NCBI GenBank assembly: GCA_963722185.1
Contig: CAVRKD010000001.1
Location: 306,015-370,014, forward strand
DNA from: an uncultured Actinomycetes bacterium
GTDB lineage: Bacteria > Actinomycetota > Acidimicrobiia > Acidimicrobiales > JACCXE01
Length of the DNA stretch: 64,000 bases
Direction: 5' to 3'
In this document: positions 5,151-59,149 of the stretch, one piece after another
Layout: every line of letters begins with the position of its first letter
Numbering within the stretch: position 1 is the first letter of the stretch
Made by a program: the position numbers and the translations under genes
The notes under the pieces: generated by a model
Databases searched by the model: none
Told to the model about the DNA's origin: nothing
Seen by the model: the letters and a program-made list of their open reading frames with translations, nothing else

Positions 5151-6545
5151 GTGGGGGTCCAAGTAGTGGCGCGCCGCGGCACGTCACCCATCCTGATCGG
5201 CAACGGTCAGGGGTTCTGGGGCGACTCCGTGCTGGGCCCGGTGCAGCTGGTCGAGCAGGGCCCGCTGCACTACCTCACGCTCGATTACCTGGCCGAAGTG
5301 ACCATGAGCATCATGCAGAAGCAGCGCTCGCGTGACGCCAGCGCCGGCTACGCCCGCGACTTTCTCGGGGTGGTCGAGCGCGTGCTGCCCACCTGCAAGG
5401 AGCGCGGCATCCGCATCATCGCCAACGCCGCGGGCGTCAACGCCGCGGCGTGCGCCGAGGCCCTGGCGGCGGTGGTGCGCAAGCTCGGTCTGCCCGACGT
5501 CCGTATCGGCGTGGTCGAGGGCGACGACATCCTCGACCGCCTCGACGACGTAATCGCCAACGGCGAGCCGCTCGCCAACATCGACACGGGGGCGCCGCTA
5601 TCGACCGTGCTCGACAAGGTGCTGAGCGCCAATGTCTACCTGGGCGCCGAAGGCATCGCCGAGTGCCTCGACAACGGCGCCGACATCGTGGTCACCGGTC
5701 GCTGCACCGACCCCTCGCTCACCTTGGCGCCGATGGTCTACGAGTTCGGCTGGAGCATGAGCGACTACGACCAGCTCGCCGCCGGGACCGTGGCCGGGCA
5801 CATCATCGAGTGCGGTGCCCAGTGCACGGGCGGCAACTTCACGCACTGGCGCGAGGCCGGTGACCTCACGAACATCGGCTACCCGGTGGTCGAGGCCAAC
5901 GCCGACGGCTCTTTCGTGGTCACGAAGCACCCCGGCACAGGTGGTGCGGTCACTACCGACACCGTCACCGCCCAGCTGCTGTACGAACTCGGCGACCCGA
6001 ACCGCTACCTCACGCCCGACTGCGTCGCCGACTTCACCACCATCGAGCTGGAGCCAGACGGCGCCGACCGCGTGCGGGTCTCGGGCGTCACGGGCTCGGC
6101 GCCCACCGACACCCTCAAGGTCTCCATCGCCACCGAGGGCGGCTTCAAGGCGCAAGGCGAGCTCACCGTCGGCGGCCCCGACGCCATCGAGAAGGCCAAC
6201 TTCACCGCCGAGCTGCTGTTCAAGCGCCTCGCGCTCGACGGGGTGAGCTTCGAGCCGCACGAGCGCCACGTCGAGCTGGTCGGCAACAACGTGCTCTACA
6301 AGGGCATGACGGCGGACCCGAGCGACCCGAGCGAAGTGGTGATGCGCGTCGGCGTGCGCGGCGACAACAAGCGCAAGCTCGATCGCTGGGGCATGGAACT
6401 GGCGTCGCTGCTCACCAGCGGGCCCCCAGGCCTGACCGGCTTTGCCGGCGGGCGGCCCAAGGCGACCGAGATCGTGGCCTACTGGCCTGCGCTGATTTCC
6501 CGCGACGCCGTGTCGTGGTCCACGAACGTGGAGACGGTGGCGTGA
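5151..6545 (+). CDS. AtuA-like protein (acyclic terpene utilisation family, DUF1446)
   Basis: About 460 aa with N-terminal IGNGQGFWGDS and an overall DUF1446-like layout. GTG 5166, preceded by GGGGG, is an alternative start. Confidence 0.75.
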   Translation: MGVQVVARRGTSPILIGNGQGFWGDSVLGPVQLVEQGPLHYLTLDYLAEVTMSIMQKQRSRDASAGYARDFLGVVERVLPTCKERGIRIIANAAGVNAAACAEALAAVVRKLGLPDVRIGVVEGDDILDRLDDVIANGEPLANIDTGAPLSTVLDKVLSANVYLGAEGIAECLDNGADIVVTGRCTDPSLTLAPMVYEFGWSMSDYDQLAAGTVAGHIIECGAQCTGGNFTHWREAGDLTNIGYPVVEANADGSFVVTKHPGTGGAVTTDTVTAQLLYELGDPNRYLTPDCVADFTTIELEPDGADRVRVSGVTGSAPTDTLKVSIATEGGFKAQGELTVGGPDAIEKANFTAELLFKRLALDGVSFEPHERHVELVGNNVLYKGMTADPSDPSEVVMRVGVRGDNKRKLDRWGMELASLLTSGPPGLTGFAGGRPKATEIVAYWPALISRDAVSWSTNVETVA

Positions 6546-37949: not shown

Positions 37950-38561
37950 GTGCCCACTCCCCTGACCGCGGCTTTGCAAGATCTCGTCGACGCCGCCACC
38001 GCGGCGCTCGACGCCGACCTGCCGAACGAGCGCGCCCGCTGCGACGCCATGCGCGACGCCATGGCCGCCTTGCTGGCGACCGAAGGCTCCGTGCCCGAGA
38101 CCGAGTGCCAGTCCCTCGACGGCGCCGCGGTGGGCAACCTGCTGTACGCCGATCCGCAGGGCCGGTTCCACATCCTCGGCGTCGTGTTTCCCGAAGGCAC
38201 GTCGTCGGGCGTGCACCACCACGGTTGCTGGGGCGTGATCGGCTACCTCCGCGGCGGCGACGAGGAGACGCGGTACGCCTCGGAAGCCGCACCCCACGAA
38301 GGCGACGAGATGGAGCTCACCGAGGTGTCGCGCCACGTCTGGCACACCGGCGACATCACCTATCTCTTGCCTGACGAGGGCGACGGCTGGCACCGCGTGC
38401 GCAACCCCGGCCCCGGTGACGGCGTGAGCATCCACGTGCTCTGCATGACCCCCTCGGATCACCCGCACCTGTTCTGGGATCGCTCGTCCGGCCACATTTC
38501 CGGCTACCCCTTCCTCGAAGTCGCCCCCGACCGCTGGCAAGCACGCATTAGCGAGTCCTAG
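37950..38561 (+). CDS. Cupin-fold protein (cysteine-dioxygenase-like)
   Basis: His cluster SSGVHHHGCWGVIGYLRG and a later WHRVRNPG...SIHVL, consistent with a cupin metal site. Start is GTG 37950. Confidence 0.65.
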   Translation: MPTPLTAALQDLVDAATAALDADLPNERARCDAMRDAMAALLATEGSVPETECQSLDGAAVGNLLYADPQGRFHILGVVFPEGTSSGVHHHGCWGVIGYLRGGDEETRYASEAAPHEGDEMELTEVSRHVWHTGDITYLLPDEGDGWHRVRNPGPGDGVSIHVLCMTPSDHPHLFWDRSSGHISGYPFLEVAPDRWQARISES

Positions 38562-39939
38562 CCGACCACCACTCGTCGAGGCGGCGGCGCGCTTCGTCCT
38601 CGCCGAGGGGACCGTGTTCGAGTCGCAACTCCAGTAAGAAGTTGAGCGCGTCGCCGACATCGCGGGACGGCTTAATGGCCAGTTGTTCCATCACTTGCTG
38701 GCCGTCGAGATCGGGACGGATGGCGTCGAGCTCCTCCTGCTCGCGCAGGCGGGCGATCTCGCTCTCGAGCGTGTCCATGCGATCGGACAGGCGTTTGGCC
38801 TTGGCTTCGTTGCGCGTCGTGCAGTCGGCGCGGGTCAGCGCGTTCAATCGGTCGAGCAACGGCCCCGCGTCGCGCACGTAGCGGCGAATGGCGGAGTCGG
38901 TCCACCCCATGGCGTAGGTGTGGAAACGCAGGTGCAGTTCGACCAGCTTCACGACGTCGTCGAGGTCGTCGCTCGGCCAGCGCAGCTCGGTCAGCCGCTT
39001 GCGCGCCATGCGGGCGCCGACGACTTCGTGATGGTGAAACGACACGCCCTTGTCGCCGAACTGACGCGTCGCCGGCTTGCCGATGTCGTGCAGCAGCGCC
39101 GACATGCGCAGCACGCGGTCGGGCTTGGTGTTGGCGACCACGGCGATCGTGTGGGCGAGTACGTCCTTGTGCCGATGAATCGGGTCCTGTTCGACGGCCA
39201 GCGCCGGCAACTCGGGCAGGAAATGCTCGGCCAGCCCCGTTTGGGCGATGAACCACAGTCCGGGCGACGGATCCTCGACGAGCAACAACTTGTCGAGTTC
39301 GTCACGGATGCGTTCCATCGACACGATCGAAAGTCGTCCGGCCATGGCCTTGACCGCGGCCACGAGCCCGTCGTCGGGCACGAGTTGGTAGCCGGCGATG
39401 AACCGGGCGGCGCGCAGCATGCGCAGCGGGTCGTCGCTGAAAGACTCCTCGGGCGACAGCGGCGTGCGCAGCCGGCCGGCGGCGAGATCGACGAGACCGT
39501 CATAGGGATCGATGATCTCGCTGCCCGGTAGCCGCAGCGCCATGGCGTTAACCGTGAAGTCGCGGCGCGCCAGGTCCTCCTCCACCGCGGTGGCGAAAGC
39601 CACGTCGGGCTTGCGGGAATCGGGGCTGTACGCCTCGGCGCGGTGGGTGGTGATTTCGTAGACGCGATCGCCCTTCCTGGCGCCGATCGTGCCAAAGCGC
39701 TTGCCTTGGGTCCACACGGCGTCGGCCCAGCCCGAGAGCAGTTTTTCGGTCTCGTCTGGAAGCGCGTCGGTGGTGAAATCGAGGTCGTCGGCGTCGTCGA
39801 GACGGTTCACGATGGCGTCGCGCACCACGCCGCCGACGAGATACAGCATGTGGCCAGCGTCGGCGAAGCGTTGCGCCAAATCGGCCGTAGCCGCGACAAG
39901 CCCCTCCAGACGCTCGGGAATCACGGTCGACGCCGACAC
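38548..39939 (-). CDS. cca: CCA-adding tRNA nucleotidyltransferase / poly(A) polymerase family with HD domain
   Basis: GTG 39939 is preceded by a GGAGG RBS. Motifs LYLVGGVVRDAIV, DLDFTT, RDFTVNAM, and the HD region LLHDIGKP. The ORF-track start at 40128 is antisense to tnpB. Confidence 0.9.
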   Translation of the reverse strand: MSASTVIPERLEGLVAATADLAQRFADAGHMLYLVGGVVRDAIVNRLDDADDLDFTTDALPDETEKLLSGWADAVWTQGKRFGTIGARKGDRVYEITTHRAEAYSPDSRKPDVAFATAVEEDLARRDFTVNAMALRLPGSEIIDPYDGLVDLAAGRLRTPLSPEESFSDDPLRMLRAARFIAGYQLVPDDGLVAAVKAMAGRLSIVSMERIRDELDKLLLVEDPSPGLWFIAQTGLAEHFLPELPALAVEQDPIHRHKDVLAHTIAVVANTKPDRVLRMSALLHDIGKPATRQFGDKGVSFHHHEVVGARMARKRLTELRWPSDDLDDVVKLVELHLRFHTYAMGWTDSAIRRYVRDAGPLLDRLNALTRADCTTRNEAKAKRLSDRMDTLESEIARLREQEELDAIRPDLDGQQVMEQLAIKPSRDVGDALNFLLELRLEHGPLGEDEARRRLDEWWSARTR

Positions 39940-39955
39940 CGCGGTGCCTCCGACG

Positions 39956-41233
39956 GGGGTTCTGTTGATACACCCCTTCCGTATCGTGCTGGCATGGCGG
40001 AAGGTTTCCGAGCGTTCCAGTTTGTGCTTTCTCCGACAGTAAAACAGGAGCGCGCGCTGACCACTCTTTTCCTTGAGCAGTGCCGGTTGTACAACGCCGC
40101 GTTGGAGGAACGTCGCGGCGCGTGGCAACTCGAGCGGCGAGCGGTGAGCCGATTCGACCAGTACAAGACGTTGACCGGCATGGCGGACCAGGAGCCCACG
40201 CTGATGGCGTTCGGGGTCACCGCGGCTCGAGGCACTCTTCTCCGATTAGACCGCGCATTCAAAGCCTTCTTCCGCCGCGCCGCCGCGGGCGAAACGCCGG
40301 GGTTCCCGCGGTTCCGGTCAGCGCGGCGATTCGATTCGGTCGAGTGGCCCGACACAGACGGCTGGCGAATCGACGAAACCACCGGACGACTCTATCTGCG
40401 AGGTATCGGCCACCTGAAGGTCCGCCTGCACCGCGCGATTCGCGGCTTGCCGAAGACGATCACTGTGAGACGGCGCGGTAGGCGGTGGGAGGTCACCGTG
40501 TTTTGCGCGGGCGTTCCCGCACAACCGCTGGCGCCGACAGGCAACGCCGTCGGAATCGATGTGGGCGTCACCGTGGCTTTCGCACTCTCCGACGGCCGCC
40601 TCATCGACAACCCGCGGCACCTCGCCCGCTCGGCCGAGTCGCTGGCTAAGGCTCAACGCGTCGTGTCAGGGCGCAGAAGGAGTTCGCGCCGGCGTGTTAA
40701 AGCCACGGAGGCGGTCGGGGTTCTGCATCGAAAGATCGCAAACCAGCGTCGCGACTTCCTCCACAAGCAGTCCCGGGCGCTGGTCAACGACCACGACCTC
40801 ATCGTGATCGAAGACCTGCGGGTGACGAACATGACCCGACGGCCGAAGCCGGTGCCGGATGAAGACGGCGGTTTCGATCCCAACGGCGCGGCCACCAAGG
40901 CGGGGCTTAACAAATCAATTCTCGATGTCGGGTGGAGAAGGTTCCGGTCGATGCTGGCCTACAAAGCGGAAGAAGCTGATAGGCAGCTCGTCGTCGTGAA
41001 CCCGCGCCACACGTCCCAAACTTGTGCGCAGTGCCGGCACATCGACAAGGACAACCGGCACGGCACCGTATTCCGATGCATCCGTTGTGGCCACCACGGC
41101 CACGCCGATGTCAACGCCGCGGTGAACATCCTTCGGGCCGGGCTGGCCTTGCGCCTTGCGCGCGAAGCGAAACGACGAGTCGCGTAACTACACACGCGAC
41201 GAGTCACCTCGCGAGCCTTATTCTTCGCCGCTA
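39956..41233 (+). mobile_element. IS200/IS605-family (IS1341-like) tnpB-only element; boundaries approximate
   Basis: Contains only tnpB, with no transposase ORF. Small subterminal hairpins lie at 39956..39976 and 41179..41200. It sits between cca and the GNAT gene. The ends are not defined by sequence alone. Confidence 0.5.
39994..41187 (+). CDS. tnpB: TnpB (OrfB) RNA-guided endonuclease-type transposon protein
   Basis: N-terminus FRAFQFVLSPTVKQERAL. RuvC-I GIDVGVTV, RuvC-II LIVIEDLRVTNM, zinc ribbon CAQCRH...CIRCGH, RuvC-III HADVNAAVNILRAG. 397 aa from ATG 39994. Confidence 0.92.
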   Translation: MAEGFRAFQFVLSPTVKQERALTTLFLEQCRLYNAALEERRGAWQLERRAVSRFDQYKTLTGMADQEPTLMAFGVTAARGTLLRLDRAFKAFFRRAAAGETPGFPRFRSARRFDSVEWPDTDGWRIDETTGRLYLRGIGHLKVRLHRAIRGLPKTITVRRRGRRWEVTVFCAGVPAQPLAPTGNAVGIDVGVTVAFALSDGRLIDNPRHLARSAESLAKAQRVVSGRRRSSRRRVKATEAVGVLHRKIANQRRDFLHKQSRALVNDHDLIVIEDLRVTNMTRRPKPVPDEDGGFDPNGAATKAGLNKSILDVGWRRFRSMLAYKAEEADRQLVVVNPRHTSQTCAQCRHIDKDNRHGTVFRCIRCGHHGHADVNAAVNILRAGLALRLAREAKRRVA

Positions 41234-41953
41234 GTGACAACCGCGCTCGTAACCGATGGCGCCGAGCGCGCCCGAATAGGACCGTGGCACGGCGACCCCA
41301 CCGTGGGCTGCGTCACGCCGCAACCCGGGAGCCCGCCGGCATCGGCGCGGCTCGTGAAACGCTGCCTCGAGCAGCTGGCGCGTCTGGGCTTTCGCGAGGC
41401 GATCACCGCGGCGATGCCGACCACCGAGTCCGCCGGCTTCGTCGCCGCGGGCTTTGAAGTCTCCGAGCGACTCCACCTGCTCGAGCGACCGGTAAAGGCC
41501 GCCGACCGCGCCGCGGTCGCCATACCCGAAGGCGTCACGTTCCGTCGCGCCCGCGCCACCGACATCGAAGCGGTGCTGGCGGTCGACGCCCGCTCGTTCG
41601 GCTCGTTCTGGCGGCTGGACGTACCGGGCATCCATGACGCGCGTACCGCGACGAGCCACGCGCGTTTCCGGGTCGCCCGGATCGACGAGACCGTCGTCGG
41701 CTACGCCATCACCGGTCGCCAGGGCCGGACCGGGTACCTCCAGCGGCTCGCCGTTGACCCGGAGCGGCGCAGCGGCGGCATCGGTACCGCGCTCGTGATG
41801 GACGGGGTGCGTTGGCTGGCGCAGTGGAGGGCCAACCGCGAATTGGTCAACACGCAGGAATCGAACGGGACCGCGCTGGCCCTGTACGAGTCGCTCGGCT
41901 TCCAACGCAAACCTCATGGCTTGACGGTGTGGTCAGCGCGCCTGCCGCAGTGA
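41234..41953 (+). CDS. GNAT-family N-acetyltransferase
   Basis: Acetyl-CoA motif A YLQRLAVDPERRSGGIGTALV and C-terminal ALALYESLGF. The GTG 41234 start is provisional. Confidence 0.75.
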   Translation: MTTALVTDGAERARIGPWHGDPTVGCVTPQPGSPPASARLVKRCLEQLARLGFREAITAAMPTTESAGFVAAGFEVSERLHLLERPVKAADRAAVAIPEGVTFRRARATDIEAVLAVDARSFGSFWRLDVPGIHDARTATSHARFRVARIDETVVGYAITGRQGRTGYLQRLAVDPERRSGGIGTALVMDGVRWLAQWRANRELVNTQESNGTALALYESLGFQRKPHGLTVWSARLPQ

Positions 41954-47398: not shown

Positions 47399-47973
47399 TG
47401 GAGGCCACGCGCGCGGCAGAAGACGACCAGGTCGCGGCCGCGCAAGGCGGTGACCGGCGCGCCCTCGACTCGCTTCTGCGTACGCACTACGACCGCCTCT
47501 ACGCCGTCTGCCGCCGGCTAACCGGCAACGACACCGACGCCGCCGACGCCTGCCAGGAAGCGCTCATAGCGATCGTCCGCAACCTGCACCGCTTCGACGG
47601 GCGCAGTCGCTTCGGCACGTGGAGCTACCGCATCGCCGTCAACGCCAGCCTCGACGAGCTGCGGCGACGCCGCCGGCGGCCCCAGGCGACCGACGAGGCC
47701 AGACTCGACGTCGGCACGGCGACGGTGACCGACCTCTCCAGCGGTGTAGTTGACCGCATCACGCTCGACGCTGCCCTGGCCGGGCTTTCACCGGAGTTCC
47801 GGGCGGCGGTCGTGCTGCGCGACGTCGCCGGGCTCGACTACGCCGAGATCGCGACGGCCCTCGAGATCCCGCCGGGCACCGTTCGCAGCCGCATCGCCCG
47901 CGGCCGGGCGGCACTGGCTGACGCCCTCGGGGAACCCCCGGCCATTCACGGGACGTCTAAGGAGACGCCATGA
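47398..47973 (+). CDS. ECF sigma factor (SigM-like by synteny)
   Basis: TAATG junction with the upstream gene. Region 2 DACQEALIAIVRNLHRFDGRSRFGTWSYRIAVNASLDELRRR and region 4 LDYAEIATALEIPPGTVRSRIARGR. Confidence 0.88.
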   Translation: MEATRAAEDDQVAAAQGGDRRALDSLLRTHYDRLYAVCRRLTGNDTDAADACQEALIAIVRNLHRFDGRSRFGTWSYRIAVNASLDELRRRRRRPQATDEARLDVGTATVTDLSSGVVDRITLDAALAGLSPEFRAAVVLRDVAGLDYAEIATALEIPPGTVRSRIARGRAALADALGEPPAIHGTSKETP

Positions 47974-48827
47974 CGCACGTGTCCGACGAATTCCTGAGCG
48001 CAACGCTGGATTATGAGGTTGCCCCGGCCTCGGACGACGCCGCGCATTTGGACGGATGCGCGCAGTGCCAGGATCGACTCGGCGTGCTGCGTGGCGTGGC
48101 CCTGGCTTTGGCATCTCATACGACGGTGCCCGCGGCTCATTTGCGCGAAGCGGCGGTGGCGGCCGCTGTTGTCGAGACCACGGGCGCCACCGCGACGATG
48201 CGCCGACTCATCCGGTCGAATCGCAACCGCCCCGCCGCTTCGCGCGCACCGGCTCGCCGGATAAGCCCGATTTCGGCGGCGGCGGCGCTCGTGGTGGCAC
48301 TGGCCGTGGGCGGGTGGGCGCTCAGCCAAACCGGGAGTGGCACTGGCACGGACCCCACGACGTTCGCCGGCCCCGAGCAGCAATCCAAGTCCGCGGCCGC
48401 CGACCTGTCCGCAACCGCGCCGACCGATGCGTTCGCCGATTCGACCGCCGGAGGCCCCGAATCGGGGGGCGGATCCGGCGAGGAGGTCCCGCTGGGTGCC
48501 GATGAGACCAGTTCGATGATCGCCGCCGGTTACGACGCCGGCGCCATCGGCGCGTACTCCGACATCGCCGACGTCGCCACGCGAGCAAATCAAGACCTCG
48601 AGAAGTCGTCGGAGGAAAAAGCCGAGCACCCCTACGTCGCCACACCGCCATGCCCGGTTCCGGAAGGCCAAGGCCTCGAGTGGCACGCGTCGCTGACCTT
48701 CGACGGCGTCGCCGCCTACGCGCGGGTGCTGACGGTTACGGCGTCGAGTCGGATTCTTCAGGTGCTGGCGCAAGCAGACTGCGCGGAACTCGCGACCCAA
48801 GAGATCGCACCCACCACCCCGCGCTAA
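47970..48827 (+). CDS. Anti-sigma factor-like protein (zf-HC2-like N-terminus, one TM)
   Basis: ATGA overlap with the sigma gene. HLDGCAQCQDRL motif and TM helix ISAAAALVVALAVGGWAL. Confidence 0.7.
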   Translation: MTHVSDEFLSATLDYEVAPASDDAAHLDGCAQCQDRLGVLRGVALALASHTTVPAAHLREAAVAAAVVETTGATATMRRLIRSNRNRPAASRAPARRISPISAAAALVVALAVGGWALSQTGSGTGTDPTTFAGPEQQSKSAAADLSATAPTDAFADSTAGGPESGGGSGEEVPLGADETSSMIAAGYDAGAIGAYSDIADVATRANQDLEKSSEEKAEHPYVATPPCPVPEGQGLEWHASLTFDGVAAYARVLTVTASSRILQVLAQADCAELATQEIAPTTPR

Positions 48828-49116
48828 CCAGCGCGATGCCCGACGCCACCCAGCGCATGCCGGCGATCCAACCGACGCGGTCGCCCGCCTCGATGTAGGC
48901 GGCCCACGTCATCCCTAACGCAGCGGCGAGGGCCGTCACGCCGACCAACAACCAGTCGCTGCTCCGGCCCGCGGTGATGGCCGCTTCGGCCACGAACAGC
49001 CCGAACAAGACTCCGGCGATCACAGCCGTCACACCGTGCAACGGATGCTCCCCCATGATGAGCCCGCCGAGCGCGGCTACCACCACCGCCGCAACACAAC
49101 CGAAGATCACACGCAT
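48736..49116 (-). CDS. Small 4-TM membrane protein (hypothetical)
   Basis: Four clear hydrophobic helices. Its 3' end overlaps the convergent anti-sigma gene by 92 nt. Confidence 0.5.
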   Translation of the reverse strand: MRVIFGCVAAVVVAALGGLIMGEHPLHGVTAVIAGVLFGLFVAEAAITAGRSSDWLLVGVTALAAALGMTWAAYIEAGDRVGWIAGMRWVASGIALVSAGWWVRSLGSRVPRSLLAPAPEESDSTP

Positions 49117-49144
49117 TGAACGCGAACGGTAGCGTCACCGCCCA

Positions 49145-49450
49145 ATGGCCGAACCGTCACCCGTCCGCAAGGACGACTGGATCACGCAGATACTCGACAA
49201 GCTCGACGAGGGCATCGAGTTCGTCCGCTCCAAGACCACCGAGCCGCTGGCCAAAGTGGCGCGGTACCTGGTGTACCTGGTGCTGTTCACCGTTGTCGGC
49301 GTCACGCTCATCACGTTGCTGATCATCCTCACCGTGCGCGCTGTCGCCTACATCCCGGGCCCGATGTGGACCGGCTACGCGGGAATCTCGGTGTTGTGTC
49401 TGCTGTTGGGAACGTTCTTCTGGCGAAAGGCAATGAGGGCCACTCGATGA
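49145..49450 (+). CDS. Small 2-TM membrane protein (hypothetical)
   Basis: 101 aa with a charged N-terminus and two TM helices. It has an ATGA overlap with the trxB start. Confidence 0.55.
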   Translation: MAEPSPVRKDDWITQILDKLDEGIEFVRSKTTEPLAKVARYLVYLVLFTVVGVTLITLLIILTVRAVAYIPGPMWTGYAGISVLCLLLGTFFWRKAMRATR

Positions 49451-57499: not shown

Positions 57500-57747
57500 G
57501 GTTGATAACGCCTGTGGATAACTGTGTTTGGCCTGGTCAGCGAGCAAATTAATCCACATCTTGCGCCTGTGGAAAACGGTGCTACGGTCGCCAGTTCGCA
57601 GTGACGGCGTCGGTGGTGGCGACGTCTCCCAGACAACCGCTTGCAATAGTTTGCTCTCCTTCCCCAAGGGCGCGCAGCAAGTAACCCGGGGGATCGTGGA
57701 CCGCAGTTGACGACGTTATCCACAGGTGTGGAGATAAGTGTGGAGAA
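57500..57747. other. DnaA-box cluster (rpmH-dnaA spacer, running into the dnaA 5' end)
   Basis: TGTGGATAA 57513..57521 (9/9), TAATCCACA 57550..57558 (8/9), TGTGGAAAA 57568..57576 (8/9), TTATCCACA 57716..57724 (9/9), TGTGGAGAT 57727..57735 (7/9), TGTGGAGAA 57739..57747 (8/9), GGTTGATAA 57500..57508 (7/9). Confidence 0.8.
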
Positions 57748-59149
57748 CCAGGACAGCGGGGAGGCGGAACGGCAGGTGACAGACGCAGAGCGGCTGTGGA
57801 AGGCGTGTGCAGACACCTTGCGAGCACAGGTGTCAGATGCGACGTGGATGGCGTGGTTTGAGGGACTTGTCCCAATTTCCAGCGACGAGCTCACCCTCAC
57901 GCTGGCGAGCCCAAGTTCGGTCGTGAAGCAACGCCTCGAGGAGCGATACCAGAACGAACTCAACGCGGCGGTAACCGACGCGCAGGGTTATCCGACCAAG
58001 GTTGTGATCGACGTGCGAGCGATCGAAGTCACGCCTGCCGCCGAACGAGCGCCCGAGAAGTTGGTCGAAGCCGTGACGGCCGACCTGTCGATCCCGCCGC
58101 CCCCGCCGGGCCGCGGCGAGCAGCGCCAACTCGATCCCGATTTCACCTTCGACGCCTTCGTCATCGGTGAGTCCAATTCGTTCGCCCACGCGGCGGCCCG
58201 CGCCGTCGCCGAGAACCCCGGGCGGGCCTACAACCCGCTGTTCGTCTACGGCGAGTCGGGCCTCGGCAAAACCCACCTCTTGCACGCCATCGGGAACTAT
58301 GTGCGCCAGAACTTCCCGCACCGCCACGTGCGCTACGTCACCACCGAGACGTTCATGAACGAGTTCGTCGACGCCATCCGCACCAACACCACCATCGCGT
58401 TCAAGCGCCGCTACCGCGAGTCCGACGTGCTCTTGATCGACGACATCCAGTTCATCGAAAGCAAGGAAGGACTCCAGGAGGAGTTCTTCCACACCTTCAA
58501 CGACCTCACCGGTGCTCGTAAGCAAGTAGTGATCACGTCCGACCGTCCGCCGAAAGACATCCCGACGCTGGAAGACCGGTTACGCAGCCGATTCGCCGCC
58601 GGCCTCCTCACCGACGTGCAGCCCCCGCAGCTCGAAACCCGCTTCGCCATCCTCCGGCGCAAGGCGGCACTGGATCCGATGGAGATCCCCGACGACGTGC
58701 TCGAGTTGATCGCCACGCACGTGAAGGACAACATCCGCGAGCTCGAAGGTGCGTTGACCCGCGTCGTCGCTTACGCCAGCCTCAACCGCCAGCCGATCAC
58801 CCTCGAGCTGGCCGAACAGCTCCTGATCGATCTGATTTCTGGCAACCAGCCACGCCAGATCACGCCGAAGCACATCCTCGACGCCACCGCCGAGACCTTC
58901 GGCTTCACCGTCGACGATCTGTGCGGGCAGAGCCGGCGCCGGCCCTTGGTAATCGCCCGCCAGGTCGGCATGTACGTGTTCCGCAACATCACCGACTTCT
59001 CGTATCCGGCCATCGCCAAAGAGTTCGGCGGCCGCGATCACACGACGGTCATCCACGCCGTCTCCAAGATCGAGGCTTTGATGAAGGAACGCCGCCAGAT
59101 CTACGACCAGGTCACCAGCCTGATCACCAAAATCAAGAGCGGGGGATGA
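57740..59149 (+). CDS. dnaA: Chromosomal replication initiator protein DnaA
   Basis: AAA+ Walker [12 protein letters not shown], Walker [10 protein letters not shown], box VII/VIII, and the C-terminal DNA-binding domain (DHTTVIHA). GTG 57740 has a GGAG RBS 6 nt upstream. TTG 57707 and GTG 57728 are alternative starts. Confidence 0.95.

Follow-up and report, generated by a model that had tools for sequence, protein, structure and literature searches.

A 64,000-nucleotide stretch of an uncultured Acidimicrobiia genome (GCA_963722185.1, contig CAVRKD010000001.1, positions 306,015 to 370,014; hereafter the window) carries a tnpB gene between cca and a GNAT acetyltransferase gene. Here we describe this gene and the short mobile element that it appears to occupy. 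The tnpB open reading frame (39994..41187, + strand), annotated as a putative RNA-guided RuvC nuclease, is intact and encodes 397 residues. Its product matches the Pfam families OrfB_IS605 (3.3e-25) and Cas12f1-like_TNB (1.3e-23), with a weak, sub-threshold match to HTH_OrfB, and scores 267 bits against the NCBIfam model guided_TnpB (cutoff 100). Among the NCBIfam type models, IS200_TnpB scored 219 bits versus 123 bits for IS607_TnpB. A phmmer search against PDB sequences aligned residues 7–385 with ISDra2 TnpB (8BF8/8EXA; E = 9e-37). In this alignment, the RuvC triad D189/E273/D372, from the motifs GIDVGV, VIEDL and HADVNAA, and the four zinc-ribbon cysteines (C344 and C347 in CAQC 344–347; C362 and C365 in CIRC 362–365) occupy the catalytic and zinc columns of the ISDra2 protein. 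An earlier sequence-only reading of the window had described a 397-residue frame with the full RuvC context and a CxxC..CxxC ribbon, and had proposed a search with hidden Markov models; TnpB models matched, the catalytic residues aligned, and Pfam, NCBIfam and the ISDra2 alignment agree with that description. With its catalytic and zinc residues in register, the window protein is an intact TnpB, and the type-model scores place it nearer to IS200 than to IS607.

The same reading had placed no Y1 transposase nearby, and our tblastn search of the 64-kb window agrees: with the TnpA of a Mycobacterium relative (L007) as query, the best E-value was 0.42. No serine recombinase was noted among the open reading frames near the element, although no dedicated search was run, and the window holds no second copy of the element. 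Used more widely as query, the L007 Y1 TnpA picked out tnpA genes next to tnpB in L033 and L021, in several Thermus and Calidithermus loci, and in others; in L007, L033, L021 and the Thermus loci, tnpA directly precedes tnpB. Because Y1 tnpA adjoins tnpB in these more distant relatives, we assign the family to IS200/IS605. Since Y1 occurs in distant family members and none was found in the window, the Acidimicrobiia subclade that includes the window copy is best filed as a tnpB-only, non-autonomous form of the IS1341 type. The tnpB-only state is the commonest one for tnpB (PMC10055086). The Mycobacterium locus (L007 4588-6182; Mycobacterium sp. SM1, NZ_JAFLNH010000005.1) is an autonomous relative with a 46% identical tnpB; its Y1 tnpA has the HUH motif HVHLF and the tyrosine motif SPSYFAAS, and its right-end hairpin is a structural equivalent of the one described below, entirely different in sequence.

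The family comprises 4,148 matches, mostly in Acidimicrobiia metagenome-assembled genomes. The closest non-self match at another locus is 79% identical, and the cluster at ≥90% identity contains only the window contig and one short Logan contig from the same locus. Species-representative genomes and JGI metagenomes yielded no relative above 58% identity. Copies that are 70–79% identical lie beside genes for an ABC transporter, an enoyl-CoA hydratase (ECH_1), tatA, peptidase_A4, hisD and Clp_N, and family copies occupy at least seven unrelated contexts. In seven of eight contexts (including L001, L002, L160, L161, P0002 and P0004), tnpB is followed directly, at −4 to +79 nt as the genes are called, by a gene in the same orientation, so that a guide would overlap the start of that gene. 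This pattern probably reflects compact genomes and survival of intergenic insertions.

Element boundaries and the adjacent motif

The boundaries were fixed from six independent copies of the element family. DNA was compared for L002 (70%, upstream of tatA), L160 (74%, upstream of peptidase_A4), L161/L162 (70%, upstream of hisD) and L168 (71%), and for the more distant copies L003–L006, L080 and L117 at 49–58% identity. On the 3' side, similarity passes the tnpB stop codon and stops at ..CAC(C/G)TCGCGAGCC in the window, L002 and L168, while the right ends of L160 and L161 read ..GACCC and ..GCGTCC. The DNA beyond the right end is unrelated in every copy compared. The last right-end bases of the window, GAGCC (41213..41217, + strand), where similarity among independent copies ends, place the right end at 41217, 30 nt past the tnpB stop.

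On the 5' side, similarity starts at a CACC..TCCGTA box, from 39970 in the window, which is shared with L160, L161, L003, L004, L117 and L168. This box and a hairpin define the left end (ACACCCCTTCCGTA..., 39970..40004, + strand). The hairpin (39975–40004) encloses the tnpB ATG and has a fold energy of −15.0 kcal/mol; L160 and L161 have analogous left-end hairpins, judged by eye only. No direct or inverted terminal repeats were found at the element ends. By these boundaries the element spans 39970..41217, a total of 1,248 bp.

The pentamer TTGAT (39965..39969, + strand) stands directly 5' of the left end, in the loop of a GGGGT/ACCCC hairpin. The bases at the equivalent position are GTGAT in L160, TTAAT in L004, AGAAT in L168 and TCGAT in L117, and TTGAT again in the more distant L080. 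Thus N-N-R-A-T precedes the left end in five of the eight readable subclade copies, the window included, and also in L080. Because A and T are scarce here and the window has roughly one TTGAT per kb, such recurrence is unlikely to be chance. The transposon-adjacent motif (TAM) of ISDra2 is likewise TTGAT (PMC8612924). We therefore consider TTGAT 39965–39969 most likely to be the TAM and, probably, the TnpA target. The sequence-only reading had set the pentamer aside as perhaps a coincidence within a hairpin loop; its position against the family-consensus left end speaks otherwise. Counted on both strands of the full window, there are 66 occurrences of TTGAT, compared with 40 ± 6.5 in dinucleotide-preserving shuffles, none of which reached 66 (0/100); this excess could be an effect of codon usage.

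Right-end structure and predicted guide

The last ~130 nt of the element fold into conserved hairpins. This region (41085..41217, + strand), which covers the tnpB 3' end and the right end, is a candidate omega RNA or right-end RNA (reRNA) scaffold, delineated by a covariance model and by covariation; its 5' limit was set by analogy with ISDra2 and its 3' limit by the right-end boundary. No Rfam family matches the whole window at the gathering threshold or the segment 40800–41300 at the E-value threshold. A covariance model built from five copies (R1) finds a homologous region at the tnpB 3' end in 12 family copies, including that of Mycobacterium sp. SM1 at 46% protein identity. In the R1 alignment, which is fitted to the model and thereby favours structure, 89.9% of cells are paired, compared with 30–41% when the partners are slid by 1–3 columns. 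Compensatory changes on both sides occur in 18 of 33 pairs, and none of 500 shuffles equalled any observed measure of the structure. The conservation of helices 4–7 does not stem from protein coding, because they lie in the variable C-terminal tail and past the stop codon.

The most distal structure is a terminal hairpin that straddles the stop codon (41167..41213, + strand; GCGA..GAC..GTCGCGT / ACGCGAC..GTC..TCGC), identified by covariation and folding; compensatory changes in helices 5–7 occur in L007, L117, L168 and L084. The sequence-only reading had noted a 6-bp stem (41179–41184 / 41195–41200) and a repeated 9-mer, CGACGAGTC, at 41173–41181 and 41197–41205. Both are present: the stem is the inner part of this longer conserved hairpin, and the repeat is a by-product of the hairpin's symmetry. 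That reading had also expected a right end and an omega RNA or reRNA scaffold here, and the right end at 41217, with the covarying structure before it, fits this expectation.

If the ISDra2 rule (PMC8612924) is applied to the right-end boundary, the guide would consist of 16–20 nt of flank (TTATTCTTCGCCGCTAGTGA; 41218..41237, + strand). The predicted guide, TTATTCTTCGCCGCTA(GTGA), has a 16-mer that is unique in the window; it covers a −10-like TATTCT box and runs into the GNAT start codon, GTG 41234, as had been anticipated for a guide at this position.

Insertion site and a near-identical copy

Empty sites were sought with the Cca protein as query in contigs of relatives whose cca is 86–88% identical. 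Three of them (L163, L165 and L167) have GNAT and cca back to back without tnpB. In L165 and L167 (both 5976-6001, the equivalent of window positions 39924 and 41234 brought together), the start codons of cca and GNAT have just 24 nt between them, reading CAC, CGGTTAACCGTATTCTCAGCGCCG, GTG in the window orientation. The claim that a solo, intact TnpB element interrupts a conserved gene block is thereby upheld. The opposite finding, in which relatives would carry the same open reading frame with neither an empty site nor other copies, did not materialize: empty sites exist, and family copies lie at other loci. A seemingly closer relative, P0203 (cca 94% identical), proved unusable as an empty site, its contig stopping inside cca.

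The relatives' Cca proteins all start with MIPERLEG, which corresponds to GTG at window 39924, and this codon is the ancestral cca start. The window cca has five extra codons and starts at GTG 39939. Comparison of the junctions with L165 and L167 delimits a 45-nt segment (39925..39969, + strand) that the empty-site relatives do not have; it holds the cca GTG 39939 and a GGAGG, and ends in TTGAT. The segment matches contig L001, described below, with 0 mismatches, though the adjoining cca differs. It may be either lineage-specific intergenic DNA or DNA transferred along with the element. We also considered it as an extended left end and dropped this idea, as local alignment to the upstream DNA of seven copies gave only GC-rich noise. 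In the 24-nt spacer of the empty site, two TANNNT boxes overlap on opposite strands (ACCGTATTCT): TACGGT for cca and TATTCT for GNAT, both at leaderless-type distances. General knowledge of actinobacterial promoters favours a leaderless reading of such boxes, so that the ancestral cca and GNAT genes were probably expressed as two leaderless transcripts from back-to-back promoters.

A 111-kb ENA metagenome contig (L001, carrying P0010) is collinear with the window, and its left element junction is identical to the window's. Third-codon-position divergence between the two is 0.6% in tnpB (2/327), versus 8.5% in cca, 19.6% in GNAT, 24% in DUF6049 and 30% in murJ (Fisher p for tnpB versus cca, about 1e-7). 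In all, tnpB differs by four substitutions in 980 nt, each of them C-to-T at a CG site. The near-identical tract starts after 39904 and stops before 41257 (roughly 39905 to 41256 at most); the 45-nt segment falls inside this tract, which barely exceeds the element. Because tnpB differs by 0.6% and the flanks by 8.5–30%, the window and L001 copies share a recent origin, and the element is far younger than its flanks and arrived recently. Its GC content (63–67%, versus 68–72% in the flanking genes; window 39800–41200) is consistent with a foreign origin.

Positions 40981..41217 are missing from the L001 copy, which thereby has no zinc ribbon, no third RuvC residue and none of the RNA scaffold. 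The right junction of this copy joins CTGAT to AACCGTATTCT, retaining the ancestral AACCG, which in the window is replaced by a single T. A simple deletion from the window state does not account for L001, as L001 keeps AACCG and the window does not, and two separate transpositions, one per lineage, into this one site are unlikely given that TTGAT occurs about once per kb. Two routes fit the L001 structure: one-sided homologous recombination in which incoming element DNA was anchored in cca and joined, through TGATA microhomology, to an empty site in which TTGAT adjoins AACCG, or excision of the stretch that separates the true right end from an internal TAM-like CTGAT. Elsewhere, window 47400–49400 is 99–100% identical to L001 17300–19300, in a sigma-factor region just upstream of trxB, while the flanks of this tract are 85–95% identical. 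Such mosaic identity hints that the lineages often exchange homologous DNA, or else that strains were collapsed in L001.

The short contig from the same locus, P0241 (Logan ERR12037361, 1,850 bp), has the same 54-nt gap between tnpB and the gene upstream and is 100% identical over 388 residues. A 1-nt difference in the GCGC-N5-GCGC hairpin region then causes a frameshift, and the open reading frame extends through the right end to a TAG at window 41232–41234. The frameshifted tail translates exactly the window's right end and flank (..SLILRR*). Since this separate assembly shows the same gap and right junction, it confirms the structure seen in the window.

The left neighbour, cca (38548..39939, − strand), encodes CCA tRNA nucleotidyltransferase (TIGR02692, 602 bits). 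The right neighbour (41234..41953, + strand) encodes a GNAT acetyltransferase of 239 residues, a length as in relatives. The gene order around tnpB is cca / GNAT / DUF6049 / murJ; the sequence-only reading had described this interrupted order with a small enzyme in second place, which is the GNAT protein. It had also correctly located the cca GTG at 39939 and its GGAGG (cctcc at 39947–39951, on the minus strand), 54 nt from the tnpB ATG. With dnaA at 57707–59149, surrounded by parB, parA, jag, yidC and dnaN, the tnpB locus is ~16.5 kb from the origin region. tnpB lies on the + strand, whereas cca, parA, parB, jag and yidC lie on the − strand of that replichore. A scan for sigma-70 consensus promoters on both strands of 39700–41500 found none, a consensus that says little for Actinomycetota.

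Interpretation and closest known systems

Taken together, 39970..41217 is very likely a non-autonomous, IS1341-type element of the IS200/IS605 family, inserted 3' of TTGAT in the cca–GNAT gap of one Acidimicrobiia-like lineage. A short left end is followed by tnpB and by a right end that would be transcribed into the omega RNA or reRNA scaffold; the whole is an ordinary, probably functional TnpB element. Every feature examined fits a canonical TnpB–omega RNA element except for the lack of a TnpA in cis, which is what defines the non-autonomous subgroup. If the element behaves like ISDra2 and those of Geobacillus (PMC8612924, PMC10055086), the tnpB transcript would be processed to a ~130-nt scaffold with a 16–20-nt guide from the flank (TTATTCTTCGCCGCTA..). 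Excision of the top strand could be the work of a Y1 TnpA from another locus; once closed, the donor joint, TTGAT followed by TTATTCTTCG (TTGAT plus the guide-matching flank), would be cut by TnpB and its omega RNA, and repair of the break from the sister copy would keep the element in place. For the host genes, insertion would have split the ancestral back-to-back, probably leaderless, promoters. The cca gene would now start at the new GTG, with the GGAGG of the 45-nt segment, and its promoter would, as a matter of logic, lie in that segment, in the left end or in the tnpB 5' region; the sequence-only reading had named the latter two. GNAT would keep its TATTCT box, lose its former upstream DNA and be open to read-through from tnpB.

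Several observations weigh against this interpretation. No TnpA was found within the 64-kb window, so that present mobility of the element is hypothetical. The RAT motif is absent at three of the eight subclade left boundaries (L002, L161 and L003), and the window left end is without the CG.. that comes after the motif in L160, L004 and L168. On the right, the flank in the window reads TTATTCT without the AACCG found in the empty sites and L001; because these ancestral bases are gone, the right junction must have been altered at least once. The omega RNA is a predicted one, both in its expression and in its ends. Furthermore, tnpB and the top strand of the element are head-on to replication from the nearby origin. 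A bias towards the lagging-strand template has been described for IS608 and ISDra2, and the orientation here is the opposite.

Some of these points would also suit an immobile relic, intact but stranded without a compatible TnpA, which lasts through drift and read-through alone, its TnpB being inactive now. The failure to find Y1 in 64 kb, the restriction of ≥90%-identity copies to one contig and a short Logan contig from the same locus, the decay variants (L001 without 40981..41217, P0241 frameshifted past residue 388) and a right junction unlike the ancestral flank all point that way. However, the open reading frame, catalytic residues and RNA hairpins are all intact, a near-identical copy in two diverged backgrounds implies recent movement or transfer, and a TnpA could act in trans from elsewhere in the genome, the Y1 search having covered the window. 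We regard the relic as possible but doubtful. That near-identity could itself be an assembly artefact, arising from collapsed strains or a chimeric long-read contig: L001 is rich in indels (184 gap positions in 11 kb) with fragmented genes, its identity to the window is mosaic along the contig, and if the four C-to-T differences in tnpB were base-calling errors, the copies would be identical. Yet indels are about as frequent within the element as in the flanks, and the joint of CTGAT to AACCG is clean and novel, with ancestral bases that are gone from the window. Consensus polishing would not create such a joint, and an artefact thus does not explain it; we judge this account unlikely. The very young insertion shared by two diverged backgrounds is the one less ordinary feature of the element. 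If it is taken at face value, it might reflect homing-like spread, in which the element or its allele passed horizontally between the two lineages to the same TTGAT site: TnpB with its omega RNA would cut the empty cca–GNAT site, and repair would draw on incoming element-bearing DNA, in the manner of homing endonucleases. A near-identical tract hardly longer than the element is what such an event would leave behind. Simpler explanations exist, and we consider such a transfer quite improbable.

A guide that covers the GNAT −10-like box and start codon raises the question of domestication, whereby a TldR-like or other host-adopted RNA-guided factor would regulate cca or GNAT. The occupation of the same locus in two lineages and the position of tnpB directly upstream of a co-oriented gene in seven of eight family contexts would be in keeping with such a role. 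Nevertheless, the nuclease residues are intact, unlike those of TldR, and the closest empty-site relatives have no tnpB. Where the element is present, what precedes the guide target is the right end and not a TAM, the nuclease C-terminus and the entire RNA scaffold are gone from the L001 copy, and family copies lie at unrelated loci, making domestication very improbable. An IS607-type element is still less credible, as is a miniature type V CRISPR effector. The protein does give sub-threshold NCBIfam scores for IS607_TnpB (123 bits), C2c8 (167) and Cas12f2 (70), but these fall far under the cutoffs (350, 350 and 450, respectively). No repeat array lies between 30 and 50 kb, and relatives pair with Y1 TnpA, while, within the limits of the inspection described above, no serine recombinase was noted nearby.

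Understood as an IS1341-type insertion, the element leaves the current understanding of TnpB unchanged. It does offer a natural TnpB element with clear boundaries, from an uncultured high-GC clade that has been little studied, with a predicted TTGAT-like TAM, a compact and nearly wholly coding scaffold and a defined guide, which make it testable as a small genome-editing nuclease. It also shows an element settling between two divergent housekeeping genes, in a promoter region of 24 bp, without destroying either, and the comparison with L001 provides a natural experiment on spread and decay between related lineages. Were homing true, the pair would supply evidence, from nature and at the population level, that TnpB elements can home between genomes, beyond their retention in one.

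The closest known system is the TnpB–reRNA complex of ISDra2 from Deinococcus radiodurans (PDB 8BF8/8EXA/8H1J; PMC8612924), with which the window protein shares full-length homology and the same triad and zinc ribbon. Both elements have TTGAT at the left boundary, and in both the scaffold (here predicted) covers the 3' end of tnpB and stops where the right end stops, with a guide derived from the flank. Unlike ISDra2, the window element has no tnpA, and its right end lies only 30 nt past the stop, making the scaffold nearly all coding. The window TnpB has a 21-residue insertion (284–304) after RuvC-II, its host is a high-GC actinobacterium, and its RNA hairpins are unrelated in sequence to those of ISDra2 and have no Rfam match. 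In its layout, the element resembles the IS1341 group and the ISGst elements of Geobacillus (PMC10055086), in which tnpB alone stands between short left and right ends, TnpA is presumed to act in trans, the TAM is clade-specific and the same logic of donor-joint targeting applies. It differs from ISGst in that only one copy is visible here, no cognate TnpA was found in the window, and its right junction has changed from the ancestral flank. Nearest in sequence are uncharacterised TnpB genes of Acidimicrobiia and other actinobacteria (P0002–P0120; L002, L160, L161, L168 and L004), at 57–79% protein identity. These share the CACC..TCCGTA left-end box, the ..TCGCGAGCC right terminus and the hairpins, but they occupy other sites (tatA, peptidase_A4, hisD, Clp_N and others), the cca–GNAT gap being occupied only by the window copy.

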